From Eledone cirrhosa (lineage: Eukaryota), in assembly GCA_964016885.1 (NCBI GenBank), contig OZ024742.1, positions 274,474,001 through 274,538,000 of the forward strand: 64,000 nt of DNA, written 5' to 3'. The notes beneath the pieces were generated by a model, which did no database searches, was not told where the DNA came from, and saw nothing but the letters and a program-made list of their open reading frames with translations. Positions within the stretch are counted from its first letter, which is position 1. Every line of letters begins with the position of its first letter. A program made the position numbers and the translations under genes. Positions 1,013 to 40,573 of the stretch are shown one piece after another.

Positions 1013-2603
1013 GATTTCTTTATTAGCCACAAGGGCGCAACAAGAAAGGGGACAATACAAAGACATGCCGGGGATTTTACATACAGTCGTGTAAAAAAAT
1101 ATAAAAACAAACAAACAATTTCAACAATCGAAATCCCCAATAGGGGGGAGGCGCCACAAATGGGTTGTTTAATACCCTGTCGATAGAACAACCCTCAACT
1201 CGAGGAGCGTGTTGTGCAAGTGCTCCTTTCTTCCTTTTGCTCTCTTCCTCAACCTACAGGCTTATAAACAGAGAAGGCCCAATCACTCGGGCCATTTTCG
1301 CTTCATTCACCCACCTTTCAGTAAATTTACTGGGGTGCAGTGCCTCTCTCTCCACCCTGATTCTCCTTCTAAAGTGATACTTAAAGAAGGGAATCAATTG
1401 TTGTCCGGAGAGAAAGGCATCTGTCCTCAGTCCTCTCAACCTCGTCCACCATATAACTTCTTTCACCATAGCCACCGTACAGAGGAAAACCGCCTCTCTT
1501 TCGTTTTTGAAAGAGTCTGGCGGTTTGATCCTTACTATGGACTCGGAAGTCAACTGTATTTGTCCCATACGCGACAGCAGTTGTTCTGCATAGTTCCACA
1601 GGTCGCTTACGCCCGGGCAGTGTACAATTGCGTGCAGAACCGTTTCAATGTCCTGCGCACATCTTGGACACGTCCTCTTGGAAGGATCCCTGCCAGGGCG
1701 TCCGTGCCTGTAGACCTTGTCACGAACCGGTAGAGCTCCTCGGTAGCACTGCCAGGCCAGGGACCTCTGGAAGTTGTCCATAGGTCCCGGGCGGAAAGTC
1801 CTACCAAACATACTGGTGAGCTCATCGTCTTCGACGCCCAGAGTCTCTCCGAGCACGTCGTCGCCCTTGTAACGTACAATCCCTCTATAGAATGTCGAAG
1901 TGGAGTCTCCACTGATTGCTGCGCCCGCTTGCCAGAGGACTGTGAGCGCCTGAGCGCATTCAATGTGCCAGGCGCCCATCGTTTTCGGTCTTTTCTTCAC
2001 CCAGGACTGCAGCTCCATTAGCGAGACGAGCTGTGGGAAAGCCTGTCTCACAAACGGTGCCCACACCGGTTGGGGGTCGGTGAGGAATACCTGGAGATGC
2101 CGCAGCCTTAGCGCATGTTTGCGCATAATCAGCCACGGCATTCCCAGCCCTCCGTTGGAAGGGTGCTGACAGCAGACGGATCTCCTCACCAGCGGAGCCT
2201 GCTTCTTCCACAGAAACTGGAAGAGCATGCGTTCCATCTTGGCGAGGTGTTCACGGGGACAAGGCACGACAGTCAAGCGGTAGTAGATGACGGACGCTAT
2301 GAAAGTGTTCGCCACCTCCGCTCGACCTTTCAAGGACAGTTTGCACTCTGCCCACTTCTGAGTGAGTGCAAACACCTTGGCGGTGACCTCGTTCCAGTTT
2401 TTCTCCACCTGGAGGTCTGGACCGAACCAGACCCCGAGCAATTTCACCGGTCCGTCCGTCCAGCGTCCAATGGCGCTGTCGGATGTCATCGGTTTGCCTC
2501 TCCACGTACCGAGTTGCAAACCGACAGACTTGTCTGGGTTTAGTTTTGCTCCCGTCAGCGTTTCGTATTCTTTCAGTATGTTGCCGATCACCCCGATTTC
2601 CGA
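1013..2603 (-). mobile_element. 5'-truncated L1/Tx1-clade LINE with a 14-bp target-site duplication
   Basis: GGTTGTAATATATT at 999-1012 and 2604-2617; GC-richer than flanks; AATAAA near the 3' end; intact ORF. Confidence 0.9.
1254..2591 (-). CDS. C-terminal part of Tx1/L1 ORF2 (RT thumb plus C-terminal zinc-binding domain), 445 aa
   Basis: YETLTGAKLNPDKS, KLLGVWF, LSLKGRAEVAN, GGLGMP, CPRC...ETVLHAIVHC motifs. Confidence 0.85.
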   Translation of the reverse strand: MIGNILKEYETLTGAKLNPDKSVGLQLGTWRGKPMTSDSAIGRWTDGPVKLLGVWFGPDLQVEKNWNEVTAKVFALTQKWAECKLSLKGRAEVANTFIASVIYYRLTVVPCPREHLAKMERMLFQFLWKKQAPLVRRSVCCQHPSNGGLGMPWLIMRKHALRLRHLQVFLTDPQPVWAPFVRQAFPQLVSLMELQSWVKKRPKTMGAWHIECAQALTVLWQAGAAISGDSTSTFYRGIVRYKGDDVLGETLGVEDDELTSMFGRTFRPGPMDNFQRSLAWQCYRGALPVRDKVYRHGRPGRDPSKRTCPRCAQDIETVLHAIVHCPGVSDLWNYAEQLLSRMGQIQLTSESIVRIKPPDSFKNEREAVFLCTVAMVKEVIWWTRLRGLRTDAFLSGQQLIPFFKYHFRRRIRVEREALHPSKFTERWVNEAKMARVIGPSLFISL

Positions 2604-3146
2604 GGTTGTAATATATTAATAGTAGTAGTGTGTTTTATTTCACAATATTCAAGAGTTATATCTAGTTGTGGATATGTAAGATTAAGTATCGATGTGAGTA
2701 TAGGTTAATCGTTCGGCTTAATTTAAAATATATTCTAATTTGCCAGTATTAGACTTGACATTTTAGGGTTGGTTGTCTAGCTTGATTTATAGTGTATGGT
2801 AAAACCGACGGTTAGTTCTATAATACAATGAGTTTGAGGAGGTTTCCCTATGCAAAATATCGATATGGAGACAAAAACTCTGACGATCCCGACCTTAAAC
2901 CAACTCCTGAAGGTCAAGTTATAAAACTATAAATATTTTAAAAACATTTAAGTTTTAAGGTGTTTCGGACTGCTCTTCTATAACGCACGATAGAATTAAT
3001 TAATAATTATTAATAATGGTATATCATGCAATGGTCATACTCGATAACGAGGGGGCAGCCATCATATATATATACAAGCACACGCAAATACACACACACA
3101 AACACACACACATACACACACACACACCTATATATATATATATATC

Positions 3147-5651: not shown

Positions 5652-6652
5652 CATAACTTGGGCATTATTTATCCCAACTTGTAGAAAACTTATAACGAAA
5701 CGATCGTATGGAAAGAAAGAGAGATTTATTTAATTATGTCTCATATAAAATAATACAACCAAATTTCCACGAAATGCTATATAGTAAGCATCCCAAACAC
5801 TTAATTGGGATTATACTTAGGTATATCCTAATGTTTGATGAGTGAGATGGAGTTGGTCAGAGTATCGCTTAAAGCTTTCAATGTTAATGTATTAAATATT
5901 ATACTCTTGGATGGCCAGATATGAAAATTCCAGATATTTAGGTATGACTTTATTTATTCTTTATATGAAATATTGATTGCATTTTCCTGTATCTCATGTC
6001 TGATATTTTTGCCTGAGAAAATACCTATATGTGTGTATAGATAGGGCGTACATATATTTATTATTTTTTTAATATCTCTATGTGTGTGTAGATGGTACAT
6101 ACATATGCTTATTTTTTTAATATCCAATTGAGTTCTTAAACACGTGGTGAAAATACCTAACAGGCTTCAATGACCAGCTTGTATATTATTTTATATTTTA
6201 CGATGACCTCCCCTTTCCCTTTTGTGGACAGTGTGAATTTTCTTTTTAAAAGACTACTAGGTTTTCAAATTTAGCTGTCCTTCTAGCACTGACGGAGACC
6301 ATCAATAATTATTAATATCGATGTAATTTTTTATATCGGTATTGCATGGGCATGCACTGATGAGTTATAAGGGCCCGCTTGTGTTTATATCTATGGATTA
6401 TATACAAGTTTCTACATAACTTGGACATTATTTATCCCAACTTGTAGTAATCTAATAACGAAACGATCGTATGGAAAGAAAGAGAGATTTATTACATTAT
6501 GTCTCATATAAAATAATACAACCGACTTTCCACGAAATACTATATAGTTAGCACCCCAAACACTTAATTGGGATTATATTCAGGTATATCCTAATGTTTA
6601 GTGAGTGAGCTGGAGTTGGTCAGAGTATCGCTTAATGCTTTAATGTATTAAA
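5652..6652 (+). repeat. ~763-bp HHR-bearing repeat, 1.3 tandem units
   Basis: 5652-5890 recurs at 6415-6652; diverged relatives at 33765-34090 (-) and 36740-37375 (+). Confidence 0.85.
6352..6476 (+). ncRNA. Type I hammerhead with a 96-nt stem II domain
   Basis: CTGATGA 6357-6363; GTTATAAG..CTAATAAC; GAAAC-GATC-GTA 6460-6471 with palindromic stem III. Confidence 0.7.
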
Positions 6653-6658
6653 TAAATT

Positions 6659-6802: not shown

Positions 6803-7681
6803 CAATTGGTCTTTCGTGTGGTTGATTATGCTGATTGGGAGAGGAAATGGTGTATATATTTTATCAAATGATTCTATGGAATACTTTATTGTATATATAT
6901 ATAAATATATATATATATTTGTGAAAATATATATACATACGTATGTATGTATGTATACACATGTGTGTGTGTGTGTGTCTCATTATGGTGTACTTAACAC
7001 GAAAGTATAGTAACTGCTATTTAGCAAACACTATAATCGCTTTCAGTCCACCTTACTACCCGCCTGTAACCTCTGTATCATGTAGTAATTTCTTCTTCCG
7101 CCTTTTGAGATATTTTTCACTTCCTACAAGGGATTCAGTTCCCTTTCTTGACCGGTGTATCACGTGGTAATTTCTCCCTCCATCTTTTGAGATTTTCTCA
7201 CTTGCTACGAACCTGTCTGGAAATTATTTTTTCCCTGAGGAGTTCCTTGAAAAGCTGGTGTGCCTCACAACAATATTGCACATCTATAATTTTCAATGGT
7301 TGCAAACTGACCAGCGAAACTGTACAGTCGGCATTTTAAAGAAAAAATAGTTTTATATCTGTGTCTATTACTTCTTATTTTATAATTTGTTATATATATA
7401 AAACAAAGGAACGATCGACATTTGTCAAATCGGACCGACGAAACAATGTTTCCGTTGGTCTTTGCATTTGCTAATACTATCTATCGGTCGCAACTCCAGG
7501 TAGAAGAAGCAACGTGAAATAAAGTGTCTTCCTCAAGGACATAATGCATCGCCCTGTCCGTGAATCGAACACACAGCCTCAGGTTTTATATATATATATA
7601 TATATATATGTTTACAATCACACCGAGCATTATAATAAATTTTCGGGGAATCGATACGTACATGTGTATATGTGTGCATGG

Positions 7682-9083: not shown

Positions 9084-9136
9084 AATCAGGAAAGAAGGTT
9101 TACATGGTTTGCTATACAAAAAAGTTTTTAATCACT

Positions 9137-9246
9137 TAGCTTACATTTGTTTCACTGAACTGGTATGTCTAGAGATCGCTATCCGCTTAATTTTGCGTTA
9201 CTCGATCGCCAATACAGAATTATAACCAGTCAGATCTTCGGAGCAT
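9137..9246 (-). ncRNA. Type I hammerhead at the PLE1 3' end; ~80-nt stem II domain; core CCGAAGA
   Basis: GCT-CCGAAGA-TCTGACTGGT...ACCAGTTCAGT-GAAAC-AAAT-GTA-AGC. Confidence 0.7.
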
Positions 9247-9638
9247 GCGAGAATGTAGAAAATACACAGGCAAGAAAAGAATAGAAAATACGGCTACTAT
9301 ATGGAGTAGTTAGGGCATTCAATTAGAACAATAACAACAATTACAACAATGCTATCAATAAACTATTTAAGGAGACCCTGACATTACTTAGGTGGGGGGT
9401 ATATAATGTATCTAATGTTACGGCGTGAAAACCAGCTGTAATAAGGCAAAAAGTATCGAAGTGTGTATCAATTTTAAATTATAAAGATAAGCTAGTTTTT
9501 ACAGTCTTTCTCTTCATCTTCAACAATATACATGAGTGGGACCACTGTCAAAGCTCAATAGTTGTAGAGTTAATACAGAGGTTAACGAATTAATAAACGC
9601 ATATATCTACGCACACACACACACACACACATACACAT

Positions 9639-11976: not shown

Positions 11977-12606
11977 GTTTGTTTACAAACACACCGAGCA
12001 TTATAATACATGTTCGGTAAATCCATACGTACATGTATATATGTGTGCATGTGTATATATAAATATACATACTACTGTACGTCTGTATACATATATGTAT
12101 GTAGGTATACATACTTATATTTAAGTAACAGCCGTACTAAGAGTGGGAAATGAAATTCCGTTTCATTATTTCCGTTTATCGTTTACGGTGCACCCGGCCG
12201 ATTAACCCACTCGATATGCAAATTGGGCTACTCAGCCGTTAATATGGATAAGGAAAGTATATACTTTCAGACGTTCAATCATCTGGCAGGAAGGTATACG
12301 TTGCTGACGATAGCTAATAAGCTTCAAACTAGTACAGCGTTCCTTTGTCAGTATTGAACAAACGAGCAACGATGGTTGCTAGACACTACGGCTTGATACG
12401 GGATGTTTTTTTACAAACACACCCAGCATTATAATAAATGTTCGGTGAATCCATACGTACATGTATATATGTGTGCATGTGTGTATATATATATACATAC
12501 TACTGTACGTCTGTATACATATATGTATGTGCGTATACATACCTATATTTAAGTAACAGCCCGTACTAAGAGTGGGAAATGAAATTTCGTTTCATTTTTT
12601 CCGTTT
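11977..12606 (+). repeat. 427-bp HHR repeat family, ~1.5 units; HHR at 12298-12340 has G12>C
   Basis: Matches the units at 19744-21412; reads CTTCAAAC instead of CTTGAAAC. Confidence 0.9.
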
Positions 12607-12875: not shown

Positions 12876-14645
<1,770 letters not shown>

Positions 14646-19735: not shown

Positions 19736-19743
19736 GTATATAT

Positions 19744-21411
19744 ATGCAAATTGGGCTACTCACCCGTTAATATGCATAAGGAAAGTATATACTTTCAGAC
19801 GTTCAATCATCTGGCAGGAAGGTATACGTTGCTGACGATAGCTAATAAGCTTGAAACTAGTACAGCGTTCCTTTGTCAGAATTGAACAAACGAGCAACGG
19901 TGGTTGCTAGACACTTAGGCTTGATACGGGATATTGTTTACAAACACACCAAGCATTATAATAAATGTTCGGTGAATACATACGTATATGTATATATTGG
20001 TGCATGTGTGTTTATATATATACATAGTACTGTACGTCTGTATACATATATGTATGTACGTATACATACTTATATTTAAGTAACAGCCGTACTAAGAGTG
20101 AGAAATGAAATTTCGTTTCATTTTTTCCGTTTATCGTTTACGGTGCACCTGGCCGATTAACCCACACGATATGCAAATTGGGCTACTCAGCCGTTAATAT
20201 GCATAAGGAAAGTATATACTTTCAGACGTTCAATCATCTGGCAGGAAGATATACGTTGCTGACGATAGCTAATAAGCTTGAACCTAGTACAGCGTTCCTT
20301 TGTCAGTATTGAACAAATGAGCAACGATGGTTGCTAGACACTACCGCTTGATACGGGATGTTTGTTTACAAACACACCGAGCATTATAATAAATGTTCGG
20401 TGAATCCATACGTATATGTATATATGTGTGCATGTGTGTATATATATATACATACTACTGTACGTCTGTATACATATATGTATGTACGTATACATACTTA
20501 TATTTAAGTAACAGCCGTACTAATAGTGGGAAATGAAATTCCGTTTCATTTTTTCCGTTTATCGTTGTCAGTGCACCCGGCCGATTAACCCACTCGATAT
20601 GCAAATTGGGCTACTCAGCCGTTAATATGCATAAGGAAATTATATACTTTCAGACGTTCAATCATCTGGCAGCAAGGTATACGTTGCTGACGATAGCTAA
20701 TAAGCTTGAAACTAGTACAGCGTTCCTTTGTCAGAATTGAACAAACGAGCAACTATGGTTGCTAGACACATCGGCTTGATACGGGATTTTTGTTTACAAA
20801 CACAACAAGCATTATAATAAATGTTCGGTGAATCCATACGTACATGTATATATTGGTGCATGTGTGTTTATATATATACATACTACTGTACGTCTGTATA
20901 CATATATGTACGTATACATACTTATATTTAAATAACAGCCGTACTAAGAGTGGGAAATGAAATTTCGTTTCATTTTTTCCGTTTATCATTTACGGTGCAC
21001 CCGGCCGATTAACCCACTCGATATGCAAATTGGGCTACGCAGCCGTTAATATGCATAAGGAAAGTATATACATTCAGACGTTCAATCATCTGGCAGGAGG
21101 GTATACGTTGCTGACGATAGCTAATAAGCTTGAAACTAGTACAGCGTTCCTTTGTCAGAATTGAACAAACGAGCAACGATGGTTGCTAGACACTACGGCT
21201 TGATACGGGATGTTTGTTTACAAACACACCTAGCATTATAATAAATGTTCGGTGAATCCATACGTACATATATATATGTGTGCATGTGTGTGTCTATATA
21301 TACATACTACTGTACGTCTGTATACATATATGTATGTACGTATACATACTTATATTTAAGTAACAGCCGTACTAAGAGTGGGAAATGAAATTTCGTTTCA
21401 TTTTCTCCGTT

Positions 21412-21412
<1 letters not shown>
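19744..21412 (+). repeat. Tandem array of ~3.9 x 424-428-bp units with one HHR per unit (retrozyme-like)
   Basis: CTGACGA cores at 19832, 20259, 20687 and 21111; flanked by (TA)n. Confidence 0.95.
19826..19868 (+). ncRNA. Minimal type I hammerhead (also 20253-20295 mutated, 20681-20723, 21105-21147)
   Basis: ACGTTG-CTGACGA-tAGCT aata AGCTt-GAAAC-TA-GTA-CAGCGT; palindromic ACTAGT in stem III. Confidence 0.9.
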
Positions 21413-21443
<31 letters not shown>

Positions 21444-21888: not shown

Positions 21889-23722
21889 GTGTAAGGAATT
21901 CTTTTACAATGGAATTAGCTCGAAAGGAAATATTCCTGAGCCGTGTATAAAAGTAATATATATGAGTAATATATATGATGAAACAGATACCAACATATCT
22001 GTATTTATATTGCAAAAGAAAGTTAGCCAGACTGAAGAATATTAATTATTTTACCACAGTTCGTCCACATCGATTTAAAATAATAATAATAATAAATCGA
22101 CAAAAACTAGCTGTGCCGCCAAATGGCTATGATGTTTATACATATTTAAATTTCAAAGTTAAACCTGTTCAGTAGATAAGTTTAAACCTCAAAATCCAAA
22201 CATGTTTCGAGATGGATACGTGTATAAGTGTAGGAATATCTTGCCACTGCTCTCCTCAGTAAACATCCAGAGACAATTGATAAGCTTCACTTCTAAATAA
22301 TTTAAAAGACTGTGTGACGCACATGGGTTCACAGATTCAGGCTAGTCTCATAACCGTACTGCTAGAAATAACAGTCGTATATATGAGGCGAATTTTAGCT
22401 CGACGAAGAGCCGTTATATTAAGTGTAAGGAATTCTTTTACAATGGAATTAGCTCGAAAGGAAATATTCCTGAGCCGTGTATAAAAGTAATATATATGAG
22501 TAATATATATGATGAAACAGATACCAACATATCTGTATTTATATTGCAAAAGAAAGTTAGCCAGACTGAAGAATATTAATTATTTTACCACAGTTCGTCC
22601 ACATCGATTTAAAATAATAATAATAATAAATCGACAAAAACTAGCTGTGCCGCCAAATGGCTATGATGTTTATACATATTTAAATTTCAAAGTCAAACCT
22701 GTTCAGTAGTTAAGTTTAAACCTCAAAATCCAAACATGTTTCGAGATGGATACGTGTATAAGTGTAGGAATATCTTGCCACTGCTCTCCTCAGTAAACAT
22801 CCAGAGACAATTGATAAGCTTCACTTCTAAATAATTTAAAAGACTGTGTGACGCACATGGGTTCACAGATTCAGGCTAGTCTCATAACCGTACTGCTAGA
22901 AATAACAGTCGTATATATGAGGCGAATTTTAGCTCGACGAAGAGCCGTTATATTAAGTTTAAGGAATTCTTTTACAATGGAATTAGCTCGAAAGGAAATA
23001 TTCCTGAGCCGTGTATAAAAGTAATATATATGAGTAATATATATGATGAAACAGATACCAACATATCTGTATTTATATTGCAAAAGAAAGTTAGCCAGAC
23101 TGAAGAATATTAATTATTTTACCACAGTTCGTCCACATCGATTTAAAATAATAATAATAATAAATCGACAAAAACTAGCTGTGCCGCCAAATGGCTATGA
23201 TGTTTATACATATTTAAATTTCAAAGTCAAACCTGTTCAGTAGTTAAGTTTAAACCTCAAAATCCAAACATGTTTCGAGATGGATACGTGTATAAGTGTA
23301 GGAATATCTTGCCACTGCTCTCCTCAGTAAACATCCAGAGACAATTGATAAGCTTCACTTCTAAATAATTTAAAAGACTGTGTGACGCACATGGGTTCAC
23401 AGATTCAGGCTAGTCTCATAACCGTACTGCTAGAAATAACAGTCGTATATATGAGGCGAATTTTAGCTAGACGAAGAGCCGTTATATTAAGTGTAAGGAA
23501 TTCTTTTACAATGGAATTAGCTCGAAAGGAAATATTCCTGAGCCGTGTATAAAAGTAATATATATGAGTAATATATATGATGAAACAGATACCAACATAT
23601 CTGTATTTATATTGCAAAAGAAAGTTAGCCAGACTGAAGAATATTAATTATTTTACCACAGTTCGTCCACATCGATTTATAATAATAATAATAATAAATC
23701 GACAAAAACTAGCTGTGCCGCC
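21881..23722 (-). repeat. Tandem array of ~3.45 x 534-bp near-identical units with one HHR per unit
   Basis: Short ORFs recur every 534 bp; HHR cores at 22253, 22787 and 23321 (minus). Confidence 0.95.
22194..22264 (-). ncRNA. Type I hammerhead with extended stem II (also 22728-22798 and 23262-23332)
   Basis: GTTTA-CTGAGGA-GAG..TGG..GATA...TATC-CA-TCTC-GAAAC-AT-GTT-TGGAT; palindromic AAACATGTTT. Confidence 0.72.
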
Positions 23723-23732
23723 ATATTACTTT

Positions 23733-24057: not shown

Positions 24058-24899
24058 TTAATAGGATATACGTTCCTTCACGCACAAGGCGCCAAGGTAC
24101 GCATGTATTGTCCAACCAAATGCCAGTGTGGTTCAATGGCGGGTTAATAAATTAACGAGCCAGAACAAATATAAACAAGGTTTAGCAAATAATGAAAAAG
24201 TTTCAAAATAAATTTTAAAAAATTGACTTTACCTACTATAGTTACCTTTACCGATCGGTTTCGAATCCCAAAAATAAAACGGAGACCATACGGCCCTCGT
24301 TGCAAAGAAAGATTCTCGTCAGAAGGTTCTTTTCGTTCAAAGAATATAAAATTCCTGAATTTAAATCACAAACTAGCGCTATCAAAACTGTTCCTGGGAT
24401 GAGAGTGGATGATGTAGAAACAGGTTTATCAAAGGCCGAAGCAAAGATAGAGGCAAAAGGAGGTAGGTCAAACTAGCCACAGCTATTGCTAGCAGCAGTC
24501 AGAACGACCAAATTTGTTCTCAACATTAGTGGAGGTAGTAGTAATAGGATATACGTTCCTTCACGCACAAGGCGCCAAGGTACGCATGTATTGTCCAACC
24601 AAATGCCAGTGTGGTTCAATGGCGGGTTAATAAATTAACGAGCCAGAACAAATATAAACAAGGTTTAGCAAATAATGAAAAAGTTTCAAAATAAATTTTA
24701 AAAAATTGACTTTACCTACTATAGTTACCTTTACCGATCGGTTTCGAATCCCCAAAATAAAACGGAGACCATACGGCCCTCGTTGCAAAGAAAGATTCTC
24801 GTCAGAAGGTTCTTTTCATTCAAAGAATATAAAATTCCTGAATTTAAATCACAAACTAACGCTATCAAAACTGTTCCTGGGATGAGAGTGGATGATGTA
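24058..24899 (-). repeat. Tandem 483-bp HHR repeat, ~1.75 units
   Basis: The sequence at 24060 recurs at 24543; one HHR per unit. Confidence 0.93.
24244..24327 (-). ncRNA. Type I hammerhead with a 53-nt stem II domain (also 24727-24810)
   Basis: ACCTT-CTGACGA-GAATC...GATTC-GAAAC-CGATCG-GTA-AAGGT; palindromic stem III. Confidence 0.88.
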
Positions 24900-25087
24900 A
24901 CATGTATATATACATACGGCTCTGTTTAATTACATTGAGCTATACCTTTTACTGTCATTTCTATAATACGAAGAGGGTGTTTTACTCCAACACGCTCCAG
25001 TATTTTAACCCTTGTCACTGCTCCCGATTGGTTGAGCTTCCTCATATATACTGGTATTTTGGCCTTTATATATATATATCTGACAGT

Positions 25088-27772
25088 ATGCTAACAAAGA
25101 GTTACCTGCCTTTATCTCTGAAGAATATTCCCACCCCCTCTAGGAATATTTACGAAAAACTACTGATAGCTAGTGTTAAATCCTTTGTAAAAAGGATTAG
25201 ATGGCGTGCTTTCCACTATGATAATAATAAGCATAGGAATGACCCCAGGAATAGAACAAATTTTAATAACTATGGCTTCAAAACTTATAAGAGCCCACCA
25301 CATAATATTTTATTAGACAGTTTTGAAAGTGACTTACTCTCTCTTGTCAAAAATATTAAGTATAAGCCAAATAATAGACATAGAAGTTATAATAAATTTG
25401 ATAAGTTCCAGTCTAGACTTAAAATATTGTTAAGGGTTTTGGTGAGAATAAGTCCATTCTTGTCCCGGCGGATAAGACTAAGAATCTATACTCCATGGAT
25501 TATAGTGCTTACCGTGACTTTATTTATAAGGAGCTATATAGAAATTATAAAAAAACTACGCTTGATAATTTAACCACATCAATAGTGAGGGTTTTAAAAT
25601 TGTCTCTGACCTCGGCCTCGATAAGTATACCCAGCCATATTACCCTCGAGAACTGAGATTCACTCTTAAGGATCATAAGGTTGATTTTATTAGTAACCCC
25701 TCTGTTAGACTCATCTGTCCTTCTAAGTCCGATATAGCCATTATCAGTAAAAAAATCCTTGACCTTATTATACCAGATGTTAGGGATAAAGTTAATTTTA
25801 ACCTATGTGGGAACACTAAGGAAGTTATAGATTGGTTCTCTGGGATTAATAGACTTGAATCTAATAAGTTTATCCAATTCGATATTGATGCCTACTACAC
25901 ATCAATTTCACCCATCCTCCTCAATAAAGCTTTAATGTTGGCCATGAGAGTGTCCAGCCTTACACGATCACAGGTAGATATTATACTAGCAGCCCGTAGA
26001 ACTATTATTAAATTTGAGGACACATTTTGGACCCGTAAAAACACGCCCAATAATTTCGACGTTACAATGGGCTCGAGTGATTCGGCCCAGGTAACTGATA
26101 TTGTTGGGTTGTTCCTCCTAAATGAACTATATGTTACCTTCCCGCACCTTGTAGGCGGACTATACCGTGATGATGCATTGTTTGTAATTAACTCTAGCAC
26201 CAACAATGTCGAGCATAATAAGAAGAAGCTTTATAAGTTTTTTAAAAGCTATAACCTTTCGATCACGATAGATAGAAATGATGGAGCGGTTAACTTTTTA
26301 GATGTGACTTTGGACTTGGTCACTAATAGTTTCAAACCCTTCCATGAGCCTAATGAAATACTTTCTTATGTTAGTCCCAATTCTAACCACCCCAAATCTA
26401 TGATAAACTCTATAATTAAGGGTGTATCTAATAGGATTTCCACACTCTCTAAGGACGTAGGAACATTTAATGAACATGCGGAGTACTATAATAATGCCCT
26501 AGCAAATTCCGGTTACTCTAGTAAAATACATTATAATAATAGTAACTTTAGAAAGTGTCCGCTTACATTTAATAATAATAACATAATATCACATAACATG
26601 GCCATGAATGGGAGTAGGAAGCATAATAACCGTAAAAATTGCATAGGTGTATCTGAACCCATCCATAAGCTAACCCACGGGACTCGTAATAGTGAATATA
26701 ATACCTCTAGGAAACAAGTCGAACCCTCTGAGCGCTCACTCATCGGTGATAATTTTGCTAGATCTTATTCAAATAATGTTGCTTCTACTGATACTATTAT
26801 TGGCCCTAATCCTTTTAGTGGGATTCCAGACAGCAGCAGATCTACTGGAGGTAGAAACAGTAATAGACTTAATGGAGTTTTGGCCGATTCTAATAATGCG
26901 GTTTTAACTAATCCTTGTAGTAACCCTAGTCTTGATGGTGGGATATTAGATAATGGTAGAGTCGGTAAGAATAAAAGTAGAAGGAGACTAAATACTTATT
27001 TTAACCCGCCATATAATCAGGAAGTATTAACTAATATCCCTAGGTCTTTCTTTTCTATCTTAGAGAAAAATTTCCCCCCTTCTCATAAATACCATAGTAT
27101 TTTTAATAAAAACGTTATTAAACTTTCATTCTCTACCACCCCTAATATTAGTTCTCATTTAGCTAGCACTAACAATAAGAAAATTAGGGATGGATTCTCC
27201 TCTCTACATACTACTAGTCTGAACAGATCTGGAAATGCCTTACCACCAGAACAGACCTTATCTAATAGCAATCCTACGGGTAATGCATCACCACTTGAGC
27301 CAACCAATAGCACCCGGAAGTGTAACTGTAGAGTGAGTGCTAACTGCCCTTTAAACTGTACTGCCTCTCTAAGAACATTGTCTATGCTTGCGTAGTTATA
27401 ACTAATTCCTCTAATAAAACTTATATAGGCTCTACATCTAACACTTTTAAGACTAGGTTTAATTCTCATATCTCTAATTTCAAACATTTTAAGTTTAAGA
27501 ATTCTACTTCTTTAGCACATTATATCTGGGATCTTAAGGGGGCTAATATATCATATAGCCTTAACTGGCGTTTAGTAGCATGCTCTAATAACCTTTCTAC
27601 AAATACTAAATTTTGTAATCTCTGTATCCTCGGGACACACTCTATAATTTTCTCTAGCGAATCCTTACTTAATAGAAAGTCTGAGATATTCTCTTCTTGT
27701 CCCCACGCTATTTCTAATTCTTACTTTTATTATAAACCTAAAGGTTCTAGTAGTATAAATTGTATCCATTAG
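25088..27772 (+). pseudogene. PLE4 RT-GIY-YIG ORF with ~3 frameshifts (near 25430, 25575 and 27355)
   Basis: Joined from ORFs 24902-25573 and 25935-27395 plus adjoining frames, by homology to the PLE1 protein. Confidence 0.85.
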
Positions 27773-29534
27773 CTGATATATTCCATTACTTATTTTTTAG
27801 TTTAGATTCTTTTTGTTTTTTGTTTACCACCATTATTATCATCATTATTATCATTGGTTTTTGACAACTCTTTATTCTAGCTCACATAATCTTTTGGCTA
27901 CTATACCATATCTATCTTCTTACGTATTAAATTTTCACTATTAACACCTTATGAGTATATATCTGATTATATATTTTACATTACTTTATTTTATTTCATT
28001 TTATTTTATTTTATTTTATTTTTATTTGGATTCTTCTTTGGGTACCCCCCCCTCCCACACACACACACACACCCTCCCCATGCGCATATAAACTTATTGT
28101 CAACCCCTCCAAATTGATTATGATTATATTTAATCCCCCCCCCCCTCTTTTACGCTCCTTTCTATTATTTAATATAGTATATGGACTATGATTTTATGCC
28201 CCCTTGTATCCTCCATATATTTCTTTATTTCTGTCCCTATTAGCCTACCATAATTCTGCTTAAGTCAGTTTTTTTAGATATCGTTATGTATTTGATAGTA
28301 AAAAATTTCATTCCTGTTTGTAAATATTTGTAATGAAATATTAACGTTTATAAACTTTGATTTCTTAAACCATAGCTAATATTGTATTGCCTTATTGGAT
28401 ATTTTAAGTATTTTTGAATATTAATTTATCAAATAGGGTTTTCGAGTCATTTACCGGGGTTATTTCCTAAGTTTTTACTTAACGGCATGTGAGACCTAAA
28501 TGTATACTTTTGTTTTTGTTTTTTAATTTACGGTTGATTCTATCTATTTATTTATTTTATTTTATTTTATTTGTAATACTACTGTGCTTTATATTTACTG
28601 TCTGGCCCTTACTCACTCATCCACATATATGTCTGTTTACCAACCTTGTAATTATAAGTAATTATATATTATATTATGTTAATTATTTTCTATTATATTG
28701 TATTTGCTATTGGACCATCGATCCTTATTACTTACCGTTGATTAAATGTAACAATGTGATATGTTAAACTTTATATACCATGTAAGATGTTTATATTTTT
28801 GTACCATCATAATTTTGGGTATTGTACAATTTATTTTCCTCACCTACTCTGTAACTCTATATGAATTGATTTGTTAACTTGAATGCCATTATATATTGTA
28901 TATTATATATGTTATTATATTATATTATTATTATAGTATTATTGTGACATCTATATTGTTTGTGTAAATTAACCGGAAACTATCTATTCTATTATATTAT
29001 ATTATATAGTATATAATTGTATAGCTTATTATATATTATATGTGCTACTTATAATAATATCATATTATTACCTCATGTATATTGGGTATATGTATTATTA
29101 TTATTATTATTATTATTATTTTTATTCCTATCATGCTTATTTATATTTAAACTCTTAATAAGGTTTAATTTGTGCTGTTGAAGATGGATATGTGTATTGA
29201 TGTATGTGTATATGTGCGTACGTGTGCGTACATATATACATATGTATATTGTACCTTTTGATTTTTATTGTAATTTTAATATTGGTAAAGGTATATTATA
29301 TTATATTATATTGTATATATAATACCTGCTCTATATAACCACCTTTGTTTAGCTCTAGGGTTTTTTTTGCTTTGGACTATATTTGTAATATGGTTCTAAA
29401 TGTTATACACCTTCTTAGTGATTTTTATTATATATTTTTACCCATAATCTTGCAATACTTTAGTGTATGTACACTCCATATTCTTCGGAGTTTCTGGCTT
29501 GTATTGGCCGATAATACTTCTTGTTGTTTTATTT

Positions 29535-29572
29535 GCCCTGACGAGTCCTTAACAGGACGAAACATTGTTGGC
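29535..29572 (+). ncRNA. Minimal type I hammerhead at the PLE4 3' end
   Basis: GCC-CTGACGA-GTCCT taac AGGAC-GAAAC-ATT-GTT-GGC. Confidence 0.9.
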
Positions 29573-29717
29573 TAATAAAGACTTTTGATGTATTGAAGGC
29601 TTCTTTGTTTTACTTTCATAAATATATATACATATATATATATAATTGGCTTTTGTGTGGTTGATTATGCTGATTGGGAGAGGAAATGGTTATCAAATGA
29701 TCCTATGGACATACTTT

Positions 29718-29838
<121 letters not shown>

Positions 29839-29856
29839 GAAAATATATATATATAC

Positions 29857-30485
29857 AAAAATTAGAATTGGAGCTTTGAAATAGCAATATATATATGGAT
29901 GTATGTATAATGTATTTTGCAATACAATTTATGCTTAATTAAAAGCATTTTGAAGACCGTATGCTATTGTTTTAGAGTAGTGACAAATTCACTTACTTTA
30001 ATCTCAGCAAACAGAGGAGATAAGCCGACAAGGCCTTGTTTCGCTTTTGTTGAAGCTTATCAAGGCTAACTACCCCTCCTGTCGACTGAGATTTCTGATG
30101 TTATATTCTTATAGAATTCTAGTAAATAATCAGGAACTGATTATACAGAGCGATTGTTCGTCAGGCAGAAATTAAAAATTAGAATTGGAGCTCTGAAATA
30201 GCAATATATATATGGATGTATATATAATGTATTTTGCAATAGACTTTATGCTTAATTAAAAGCATTTTGAAGACCGTATGCTATTGTTTTAGAGTAGTGA
30301 CAAATTCACTTACTTTAATCTCAGCAAACAGGGGAGATAAGCCGACAAGGCCTTGTTTCGCTTTTGTTGAAGCTTATCAAGGCTAAATACCCCTCCTGTC
30401 TACTGAGATTACTGATGTTATATTCTTATAGAATTCTAGTAAATAATCAGGAACTGATTATACAGAGCGATTGTTCGTCAGGCAG

Positions 30486-30503
<18 letters not shown>
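29857..30503 (-). repeat. Tandem 2 x 317-bp HHR repeat
   Basis: ATTAGAATT at 29861, 30178 and 30495; relatives at 37430-37850 and 54780-55120. Confidence 0.93.
30023..30067 (-). ncRNA. Type I hammerhead, U3:A8 core variant (also 30340-30384)
   Basis: AGCC-TTGATAA-GCTT caacaa AAGC-GAAAC-AAGGCCTT-GTC-GGCT. Confidence 0.82.
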
Positions 30504-33655
<3,152 letters not shown>

Positions 33656-33697: not shown

Positions 33698-33745
<48 letters not shown>

Positions 33746-33887
33746 TCCGGCCAAATTCCAACTCACTCAACAAACATTAGGAAATAAGTGATTATATTCC
33801 CAATTATGCGTTCGGGGTGCTAACTAAAAGTATTGCGTGGAAAATTGGCTGTATTATTTCATATGAGACATAGCTAATACAGCTCTT

Positions 33888-34014
33888 CCCAGACGGACGT
33901 CTCGTTTCATTATAGGATTCCTACAATTTGGGTGAAGTTATACCAATTTATGTAGGAGCTTGTATACCATCAATAGATATATATTCAAGTGGGCTCCTAT
34001 AATTCATCAATGGG
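33888..34014 (-). ncRNA. Hammerhead of the 763-bp family with ~95-nt stem II; core TTGATGA
   Basis: CCCA-TTGATGA-ATTATAGGA...TCCTATAAT-GAAAC..GTC-TGGG. Confidence 0.7.
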
Positions 34015-34095
34015 TGCCGCAATAATACTAATATTGATAATCTAACCAACATCAGTATTTAGCGATAATCATCATCCTCTGTGCCTGAGGTATCT

Positions 34096-35955: not shown

Positions 35956-37039
35956 CAAACTTACTATAAAAGAGACTGTTATACTGACATTTTCTTCGCT
36001 AAGCATAAATATATATAGTTGCAAAATTGTGTATGATAACATGAAATCTTTTCCATGACTGTCAGAGATTACAGATATTTTTGCTACCATAACTTTTCAC
36101 TAATAATGTATCGGTTAATTTATATTTTTGCTTCGAAATTATTCCAAATATTCATGTTTTTTGCCTTTTTATTAAGGTTATTTCGAATACAGTTTATGCC
36201 TAAGGTCTCTAAATGGTAGAACATCCATTAATTTGTGAAATATGAGATGTAATTAAGAAAAATTCGTAAAGGCAAATAAAAAGAAATCTATATATGAATT
36301 TTCATTTTTCATCTCATTTTAGAGAATTATCTCCAGGTGAAATTGTTGTCTCAAGACTAGAATACTTAATTTAGCAATAATTCTATGAAGCAAACGTAAT
36401 ATTTACTTATTCGCCAGAAGTGCAGTAATCATATTATCATAACGTTAAATGCAAAATATTAACGCACAAAATGTATAGTCCTATCCAATGCGTATTACAA
36501 TCACGCTGGCACGGTGAGGAACACTATGTATTCATGTTTATATACGATCGTTTATATTTGAATATACATGCACCATCACTCAAAAATATTAACCCGCGTG
36601 TGTTTTATATTTTACTCTTAATAATTCGGCCGGAGAATTATATTCCCATTTGCCCTTTATAGCATAACTTTCTGCATTTACTGCGGTTATGAGAAGCGGT
36701 TCTTATTCGGGTACAACTTCTGATTTAGCCTAAGAAAATATCTATATGCTTGTGTAATTTATACAAGCATATATTTATTTTTTTATTTTCAATTGAGTTC
36801 TTAAACACGTTGGATTGATAATGTTTTCAAAAAAACTAATTAACCCGCGTGTATATTATTTTTTTTCCTCATTTCGTGGGTTGTCTTCCCTTCCCGCTTC
36901 GTGTCGCTATGATACTTCCTCAGTTAAAAACTGCTGGAATTTCAAATTGGGCGGTCATTCGAGGTGAGAGAGACCAACTTTACGGACATGATTTTGACAG
37001 CGATAAGAAATTGTTTTCTTATATCAATGTTTAATGGGC

Positions 37040-37165
37040 TTCCACTGATGATTTATAAGTGCCCACCTAAATATATTCTTACATGAATATATATTAGGCT
37101 TCTACATAAACTGGAAGCATTCGCCCAAACTTTTAGAAAACTTATAATGAAACAATTGTTTGGAA
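37040..37165 (+). ncRNA. Hammerhead of the 763-bp family with a 97-nt stem II domain
   Basis: TTCCA-CTGATGA-tTTATAAG...CTTATAAt-GAAAC-AATT-GTT-TGGAA. Confidence 0.78.
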
Positions 37166-37429
37166 ACAATTGTTTAAATATACTTAATTGTTTAAATATA
37201 TTTAAACAATTGTTTAAATATACTTTAACTTTAATTATATCTCATAAAATAATACAACTGGTTTTTCCACATTATACATATTGTTAGCACCCCAAACACT
37301 TAAATTGGGTCTATATTTTAATATAACCTAATGTTTGTTGAGTGAGATGGTTACCAGTCAGAATTTAGCTTTAAACTATCTCTGTTATTCTATTACCTGC
37401 ATATATATATAACTATATATATATAAGAG

Positions 37430-39790: not shown

Positions 39791-40573
39791 ATAAATAAAT
39801 ATATATATATATAGTAATAAAGTATGAATTCCTACGTGTAAAAAATACATATAGGGAAACAAATATTATCCAACCGCGGTAAAGGCACATATAGTAAGTA
39901 CAGCAACTTTATTTTTAATTTATTTTAAAACTTTTTCTCTATTTGCTAGACCTTGATTTTATATATATATATATATTTATAATTAAATTTGTGTCCACGT
40001 GCGTGTGTGCGTGCGCGCGTTTATATATATATATATTAATGATTCAAACATTTAATAACTATCAGCCTTTCTTCACAAGGCAGGAATTTTCAGAGTTATT
40101 AAATACAAATATAAGATATTAATTACTCTTATTAAAAGTTTGAAAGATAAAATACTATTTGATTATTATTTACATTTTAATTCTGCTCAGTATTATACTT
40201 GATATATTACATACGTGTTCCCTGTAAATGGTTAGGCGTCTCTTATCTTCTCTTTGATGAGACCTCATGCCTCGTTAGAAATTTTGAACTACTACATTCA
40301 CTTGCAACCAGCAACGGGAAGTAACAGCACACCATATGGAACTTCCATTACAGAGAAGCGCACTCCCGCTGACGACGCGTTTACCACAAAATTACGTAAT
40401 GTATACAAACATTGGCTAATTTTCTTCACATAGTTGTTCCACTCGGAATGTTAACAGGAGATAGGCATCGTAGAAACTAATGCATGGGTTCGGGTTGCTC
40501 AATTTTGTGACATACACGGTACAGTATATATAGGGAATATAAAAGGGTATCGCTTGAAATAGAAGGAAGCGGG

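Follow-up and report, generated by a model that had tools for sequence, protein, structure and literature searches.

Predicted type I hammerhead ribozymes with a branched stem II on a non-coding repeat of Eledone cirrhosa

The window analysed here, a stretch of 64,000 nucleotides of Eledone cirrhosa DNA (assembly GCA_964016885.1, contig OZ024742.1, positions 274,474,001 to 274,538,000), contains three copies of a non-coding repeat with a motif that is predicted to be a type I hammerhead ribozyme. Stem II is expanded into a four-way junction with two hairpins, which likely forms a pseudoknot with the flank of stem I, and the repeat is likely to be moved by a Penelope-like reverse transcriptase (RT). 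Taken as a whole, this is the reading that we favour and consider reasonably probable. A sequence-only reading of the window had placed three hammerheads in it, with their CUGANGA and GAAA boxes 95-97 nt apart, and all three were found at those places, with box-to-box spacings of 96, 95 and 97 nt for copies 1, 2 and 3. The likely pseudoknot, the retrozyme context and the damage in all three window copies are absent from that reading. The features are the following.

5652-6654 (+): subfamily A repeat insertion, from BLAST of the 767-nt unit against the window and the tandem repeat table
6348-6475 (+): copy 1 hammerhead
6348-6351, 6353-6356/6472-6475, 6357-6363, 6364-6372/6451-6459 (+): copy 1 GGGC, stem I, core, stem II
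6373-6376, 6378-6408, 6410-6449, 6460-6463 (+): copy 1 GCCC, P2a, P2b, GAAA
6464-6469 (+): copy 1 palindromic stem III; predicted cut between 6471 and 6472
33744-34095 (-): subfamily B repeat insertion, unit about 706 nt, then (TA)n, from BLAST and the tandem repeat table
33888-34019 (-): copy 2 hammerhead, coordinates counted by hand
34019-34016, 34014-34011/33891-33888 (-): copy 2 pseudoknot 5' strand (CGGC; consensus GGGC), stem I
34010-34004, 34003-33995/33917-33909, 33994-33991 (-): copy 2 core (with C3U), stem II, GCCC
33989-33959, 33957-33919, 33908-33905 (-): copy 2 P2a, P2b, GAAA; predicted cut between 33892 and 33891
36588-37395 (+): subfamily C repeat insertion, unit about 1005-1007 nt, from BLAST
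37036-37164 (+): copy 3 hammerhead
37036-37039, 37041-37044/37161-37164, 37045-37051, 37052-37060/37140-37148 (+): copy 3 GGGC, stem I, core, stem II
37061-37064, 37066-37098, 37100-37138, 37149-37152 (+): copy 3 GCCC, P2a, P2b (one G>T break), GAAA; predicted cut between 37160 and 37161
37165-37395 (+): 3' domain, about 190 nt, conserved and structured, from the cut site to the fixed 3' end
6476-6654 (+) and, shortened, 33887-33744 (-): equivalents of the 3' domain, placed by 3'-end positions

All three window copies are damaged, decayed members of a repeat with thousands of copies. The CUGANGA box is intact in copies 1 and 3 and not, as had been claimed, in all three: the core of copy 2, at 34010 (-), reads UUGAUGA where the subfamily B consensus has C3, and this copy lacks a proper hammerhead core. 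Copy 1 departs from its subfamily consensus by a G.G mismatch in stem I (TGCA/TGGA) and an A.A mismatch in stem II; the stems TTATAAG/CTTATAA and TTCCA/TGGAA proposed earlier are those of the copy at 37045 and not of the one at 6357. The stem II domain of copy 1 has a folding z of -0.9, and single-sequence folds of the window copies did not yield the active fold. With regard to the insertions, that of subfamily A begins with a unit truncated at its 5' side and has one hammerhead, its fixed 3' end being followed by (TA)n from 6659, and that of subfamily C has a local duplication immediately 3' of the hammerhead.

Conservation of the hammerhead and its four-way junction

Searches of the genome (3.0 Gb, 1,796 contigs) gave 2,165, 1,858 and 1,336 first-look candidates for copies 1, 2 and 3, with 40 candidates scored and 30 loci retrieved per window copy. 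The exact family pattern has at least 3,574 matches against 0 for the reversed pattern, and is thus more than chance. A total of 140 distinct copies fell into 11 clusters, nine of which had at least two members and gave consensuses that are 71-92% identical to one another; two singletons were dropped. The core is present in all nine and varies only at N7 (U/A) and H17 (A/C/U), while GAAA and U16.1 are invariant. Helices I, II and III surround it and the motif is open at helix I, as in type I hammerheads.

The pairing was scored on a 22-row alignment of hand-picked representatives and window copies, against stem I, the 9-bp stem II, the inner hairpins P2a and P2b, stem III and the pseudoknot. 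Of 901 cells, 93.7% pair, compared with 33-47% when partners are slid, and 11 of the 41 pairs change on both sides (one in helix I, three in II and one in III among them). The cell count and the covariation score were reached by none of 500 shuffles, and the number of doubly changed pairs alone by 71 of 500; the rows are related, and these fractions are therefore not probabilities. RNAalifold returned the four-way junction unprompted. In the nine consensuses, 20 predicted pairs have both columns variable; 10 of them are paired throughout and show a double change, against a background of 194 of 2,914 column pairs, a comparison in which the RNAalifold prediction itself favours covariation. Alignment scoring, RNAalifold and the consensuses from genome-wide copies hence bear out the hammerhead identity, the branched stem II and the covariation that the sequence-only reading had proposed from three copies. 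The four-way junction is, in our judgement, very probably real.

Within the junction the linkers are one base long, and the stem II domain measures 93-97 nt in the nine subfamilies. Near-consensus domains gave folding z values of -2.1 to -7.8 in all eight cases tested. P2a varies in 23 of its 33 columns with its fold kept, and the outer helix of P2b is invariant in 12 of 14. A search for subfamilies with another stem II start and the same P2b gave only three unrelated matches. Both inner hairpins had been described as retained in the window. For the first, CTTGT..ACAAG occurs in copy 1 only, with CTTGA..ACAAG in copy 2 and CCTAA..TTAGG in copy 3, and the difference between CTTGT..ACAAG and CCTAA..TTAGG means that this hairpin covaries; for the second, CTACA..TGTAG is not kept in copy 3, which has TTTAG in place of TGTAG.

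The self-complementarity of the palindromic stem III is kept through three different sequences, as had been noted. As a monomer it is predicted to form a hairpin of 2-3 bp with zero stability, whereas self-pairing yields -6 to -15 kcal/mol, as expected for dimer cleavage (PMC4209133). With a palindrome of 6-11 nt on helix III and 95 nt on stem II, the motif is not a minimal hammerhead. Most subfamilies contain U10.1.U11.1, a known tolerated mismatch (PMC3088659) that may lower activity.

A candidate pseudoknot between the junction and the stem I flank

Inside the junction, GCCC(A/G) is the only extended unpaired stretch; on the 5' side of stem I, a single base separates the stem from GGGC. None of the four GCCC columns is variable, and one of the four GGGC columns is (giving GGGU, compatible with a U.G pair), compared with eight of nine in the adjoining 5' flank. 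Within the family, no GGGC/GCCC pair changes on both sides in the 22 rows. When 80 other loci were searched with a covariance model built from the family, two more lineages emerged.

L303-L327: lineage J, 387 candidates, 25 retrieved
L258-L287: lineage K, 437 matches, control 0

Lineage J has a 95-nt domain with stem I CCTG/CAGG and stem II GTGTAAC/GTTGCAC, and its consensus keeps GGGC/GCCC. Short sequences in its 3' domain recur in subfamily B, and it has the look of an older relative. Lineage K has a two-hairpin domain of 83-84 nt with GGC(G)/(C)GCC, and ends in (TA)n about 150 nt past the cut. Families with a single hairpin carry other complementary stretches at the same position, for example GAGCG/CGCTC, TTGAGTT/AACTCAA, GAGAAT/ATTCTC and AAAGA/TCTTT.

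A type I descriptor gave 317 matches in 803,771 retrieved bases (loci enriched for such motifs) and none in the reversed sequence, the stem II domain ranging from 12 to about 105 nt. It also accepted RT coding sequence and no fewer than two doubtful motifs, which were retained for the pseudoknot test described next. Across 28 families with domains of 40-125 nt, complementarity was 7.8 within a family's own strands and 6.4 between mismatched ones (permutation P=0.009; P=0.16 for a control window mirrored on the 3' strand), where most families have one to three copies, some are related, and a few matches overlap stem II itself. Narrower windows, picked after the data had been seen, gave P=5e-5 for 29 families (mirror P=0.15), six of which score 0.

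Pairing at this position agrees with known systems. About 40% of natural hammerheads use an activating pseudoknot between stems I and II (PMC3088659), and a mirror-image case is known in which GCCR/YGGC lies on helix I (PMC7936874). Taken together, these comparisons of sequences suggest that GGGC/GCCC probably forms a pseudoknot. What this analysis adds is the candidate itself, kept in an older lineage in which stems I and II are wholly replaced. In the proposed mechanism, GGGC and the junction GCCC would pair over 4-5 bp and substitute for the usual contact between loops 1 and 2, and the two hairpins would close the junction and so keep the GCCC strand presented.

The same bases could instead act as an off switch, in which a hairpin that arises first as the RNA is transcribed would sequester the CUGANGA strand, so that cleavage would have to wait for refolding or dimerisation. 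Indeed, in subfamilies C, G and H and in copy 3 the minimum-energy fold of the monomer places the GGGC/GCCC bases in a nested hairpin that breaks stem II. The folding program is, however, unable to score pseudoknots, and the pairs that extend the nested hairpin are not retained in A, B and D, whereas GGGC/GCCC is kept. Since its position also agrees with the known activating pseudoknots (PMC3088659; PMC7936874), we consider a switch of this kind improbable and prefer the activating pseudoknot.

The role of the two hairpins is a separate matter. The sequence-only reading had suggested that the insert may be a functional domain; its fold is conserved, but related families have one hairpin or a rod instead. 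If the ribozyme and pseudoknot are real, the hairpins might be a tolerated spacer that is merely kept folded away from the core. The range of stem II domains in the genome, the variability of P2a, and the wholly different P2a and P2b sequences of lineages J and K would all agree with a spacer; the near-invariant outer helix of P2b, the constant linkers and domain length across nine subfamilies, and a two-hairpin layout kept in three lineages speak against it, and we hold it to be rather unlikely. A job of their own for the hairpins appears possible, if somewhat doubtful. A bolder proposal is that the four-way junction is a natural control module, making an allosteric hammerhead switched by the Penelope RT, by a host factor or by the folding order of GGGC/GCCC, and that it is one of many thousands of animal hammerheads, with a stem II of 45-105 nt, whose extensive radiation has gone unrecognised and escapes standard searches; we regard this as speculative and unlikely.

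The carrier repeat and signs of cleavage

Tandem loci define units of 767 nt (A), 706 nt (B) and 1,007 nt (C), in which the longest ATG frame on either strand encodes 58 aa. A, B and C are 70-75% identical across the hammerhead and 200-350 nt beyond it, and much of the remaining unit cannot be aligned. Copies show variable 5' truncation, a fixed 3' end and partial tandems. Among 146 distinct copies with 300 nt downstream, a count biased by 60 loci picked with queries that included the 3' part, 126 enter (TA)n 140-219 nt past the predicted cut (116 at 170-199), 15 run on into another unit and five do neither. Inverted neighbouring pieces occur at L027, L028, L032 and L094/L095. The fixed 3' end, 5' truncation, partial tandems, inverted neighbours and microsatellite targets are insertion marks of the Penelope type, such as those described for Penelope-like elements (PMC8557442). 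Furthermore, consecutive non-coding units, two or more, each with a complete type I hammerhead, are found at tandem loci, as in retrozymes.

L025, L036, L046, L064-L066, L072, L074, L084 and others: tandem-unit loci

The 3' domain contains a long-range helix that covaries across the nine subfamily consensuses. In addition, its copies at 6476-6654 and 37229-37395 have covarying helices of their own (ACTGG/CCAGT versus GCCAA/TTGGC). Judged by their covariation, these helices are a candidate recognition structure for the RT, and the domain is likely where reverse transcription starts; internal initiation has been demonstrated for one Penelope-like element (PMC11167929). An apparent pair of adjacent RT start sites, taken from the 3' ends, was dropped, as the offsets can be explained by TA-like bases.

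We read the family as a non-autonomous retrozyme mobilised by Penelope-like machinery, which fits these features. Transcripts through tandem units would be cut after U-H17, as monomers or as dimers formed via the palindromic stem III, and the unit-length RNA would probably be circularised. A Penelope-type RT/GIY-YIG protein would then start to copy at a point some 190 nt past the cut, on its 3' side, with insertion of the product into (TA)n; copying round the circle would give copies longer than a unit, and a cut linear template would give copies that start at the cut site.

Alternatively, the repeats might be solo or tandem pLTRs of an unseen autonomous Penelope-like element. Hammerheads and (TA)n are found at the ends of autonomous Penelope-like ORFs in the genome, and in some cases (window core 9241 and L220) the stem II domain spans 81-83 nt; retrozymes are also derived from pLTRs in a preprint (bioRxiv 10.64898/2026.07.22.740005). 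Head-to-tail units without an ORF above 58 aa on either strand argue against such an origin, and tblastn found no Penelope-like ORF contiguous with a unit in the retrieved loci, where the few nearby matches are fragments, on the opposite strand or hundreds of bases away. No parent pLTR was found by homology among the retrieved loci and the window, and we consider this alternative highly improbable next to a self-standing retrozyme.

Truncated copies offer an indirect sign of cleavage. In the C group, a tally by hand gave 88 distinct loci in which the junction of the 5' end with (TA)n lies no more than about 40 nt from the cut. The 83 truncations between -34 and +2 include 13 at exactly +1, or 12 should two adjacent loci stem from a single duplication, as well as 7 at -2 and 12 at -18, with a uniform expectation of 2.3 per position. 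At -18, where the element reads TATA, a four-base microhomology site gathers several true ends and has almost as many truncations as the cut site. The corrected P for +1 is 2e-5 if it represents one position, and 0.01-0.04 if it collects two. The count stops at +2, because many junctions further 3' fall at +11/+13, where the element also reads TATA. The pile-up at the predicted cut fits an RT running off cut RNA, and would then be a rare, indirect genomic sign of germ-line RNA cutting by such ribozymes; a pause at the stem may also cause the peak. These counts use longer anchors, which replaced a short pattern with which only 3 of 15 retrieved loci were element copies.

A dead or chance look-alike, with a structure that is merely inherited sequence, would agree with the damage in every window copy and with a comparison of only about ten lineages, all of them related. 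Double changes in every main helix, a core that varies at N7 and H17 only, and truncations enriched at the cut site make such a motif extremely improbable. The predicted ribozyme is, in our judgement, very probably active.

Relation to known ribozymes and other hammerheads in the genome

The family resembles metazoan non-LTR retrozymes, which consist of non-coding tandem units with a type I hammerhead (PMC7229834, PMC7761336, PMC6765202) and share its low GC, thousands of copies and Penelope-like elements alongside (PMC7229834, PMC7761336). In the retrozymes described, helix II measures about 4 bp and bears a small loop, in contrast to the 9-bp stem and two-hairpin junction of 95 nt found here, and the units are about 150-400 nt long (51-972 nt in bioRxiv 10.64898/2026.07.22.740005), compared with 706-1007 nt. 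As in the hammerheads of Penelope-like elements, helix I is short (4-5 bp), helix II long (7-8 bp), and helix III a short palindrome suited to dimers near the 3' end (PMC4209133, PMC6765202); however, those are minimal and are described without a tertiary contact, whereas the present motif has a large junction, a likely pseudoknot and an ORF-less carrier. A Watson-Crick helix that joins stems I and II is shared with the pseudoknotted natural hammerheads (PMC3088659). In the HDV-like circles of toad and termite, YGGC is paired with a GCCR strand, which lies in an internal loop that has an additional hairpin as its cap (PMC7936874); these are type III with an enlarged helix I and one hairpin of about 20 nt, while here helix II, with two hairpins, is enlarged in a type I motif of a genomic repeat. 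As the retrozyme, the pseudoknot and the dimer palindrome are each already known, the family extends a class and does not found a new one.

A further likeness is to the 'HHR_half_core' of Naiad elements (PMC8557442), whose core halves lie 35-50 nt apart, beyond the descriptor limits, and are left unexplained there; the spacing here is about 95 nt, three stems form and the inner fold covaries. Some half-core Penelope elements may therefore carry complete ribozymes. The claim that searches with a capped stem II length miss such motifs held up: an Rfam scan of the three copies (hammerhead clan CL00010) found no match at E<=1, and the descriptors of PMC8557442 allow spacers of 7-17 nt. The Rfam miss is due to the short stem II of its models and has no bearing on how the motif works. 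Canonical and minimal models were used in bioRxiv 10.64898/2026.07.22.740005, with no mention of stem II in the main-text parts covered; the 'long' helix II of PMC13725137 is 6-8 bp, and long inserts that did not fold as hairpins were discarded in PMC10085705. No natural hammerhead with a multibranch stem II turned up in the search listings and the main texts consulted. Hammerhead counts in animal genomes can be low by thousands, since searches cap stem II. For engineered switches, which are built on stem II, the motif would also offer a naturally occurring framework that carries a large folded domain on this arm, along with a candidate pseudoknot.

At a genome-wide level, a loose long-gap pattern gave 38,415 matches against 1,652 in the control, which is not a count of ribozymes, as RT coding sequence with the reading YADDL accounts for 20 of the first 100 rows. 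The family pattern also had 22 matches in metagenome contigs and two in viral contigs, none of which passes the hammerhead descriptor at the match, and these were put down to chance.

The window contains several Penelope-like ORFs. A GIY-YIG domain was found at 27344-27769 (Pfam), one RT ORF was assigned no Pfam family, and the ORF at 11982-10003 (-) has atlas neighbours with HTH_animal, RVT_1 and GIY-YIG. Several elements end in further hammerhead-like motifs. The motif at 9133-9257 (-, core 9241) has an 81-nt stem II and a CCGAAGA core, and lies directly before (TA)n, about 760 nt past a Penelope-like ORF (11982-10000, -); its relative at L220 has an 83-nt stem II and an intact core. A second U4C core in the window, CCGACGA, occurs at 33545-33625 (+, core 33561) with a 38-nt stem II, at the 3' end of a Penelope-like element with ORF pieces at 30823-32342. 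The near full-length Penelope-like element at 24896-29722 (+), with frameshifted RT and GIY-YIG ORFs and a long 3' region, ends in a classic hammerhead (core 29538; weak Rfam match at 29532-29575) and (TA)n.

Other motifs lie in tandem repeats. A 483-nt repeat at 24082-24880 (-) and its relative at 14080-14354 (-) have hammerheads with a stem II of 53-55 nt and AAAGA/TCTTT at the pseudoknot position, and a 534-nt array at 21902-23726 (-) has three hammerhead-like motifs with a 44-nt stem II domain. Short classic type I hammerheads occur at 19832, 20687 and 21111 in a 428-nt array (19742-21414, +, with a further piece at 12115-12452), and a 317-nt repeat at 29857-30503 gave weak Rfam HH9 matches on the minus strand (30010-30077 and 30323-30395). 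The repeat at 6983-7653 and 13154-13816 (+, cores 7235 and 13406) has CUGAGGA and GAAA 74 nt apart, with stems that do not close in the classic register, and may represent a permuted hammerhead form.

Larger stem II domains were also seen outside the main family. A single hammerhead-like motif at 40369-40490 (+) has a 97-nt branched stem II that is unrelated to it in sequence. Motifs at L164, L188, L219, L228 and L250 have rod-like stem II domains of 99-105 nt and a stem I of 8-9 bp with no clear pseudoknot, and the L164 copy lies downstream of a Penelope-like ORF. Finally, a 453-aa frame at 1254-2615 (-) resembles, by eye, the C-terminal part of a LINE-type ORF2.
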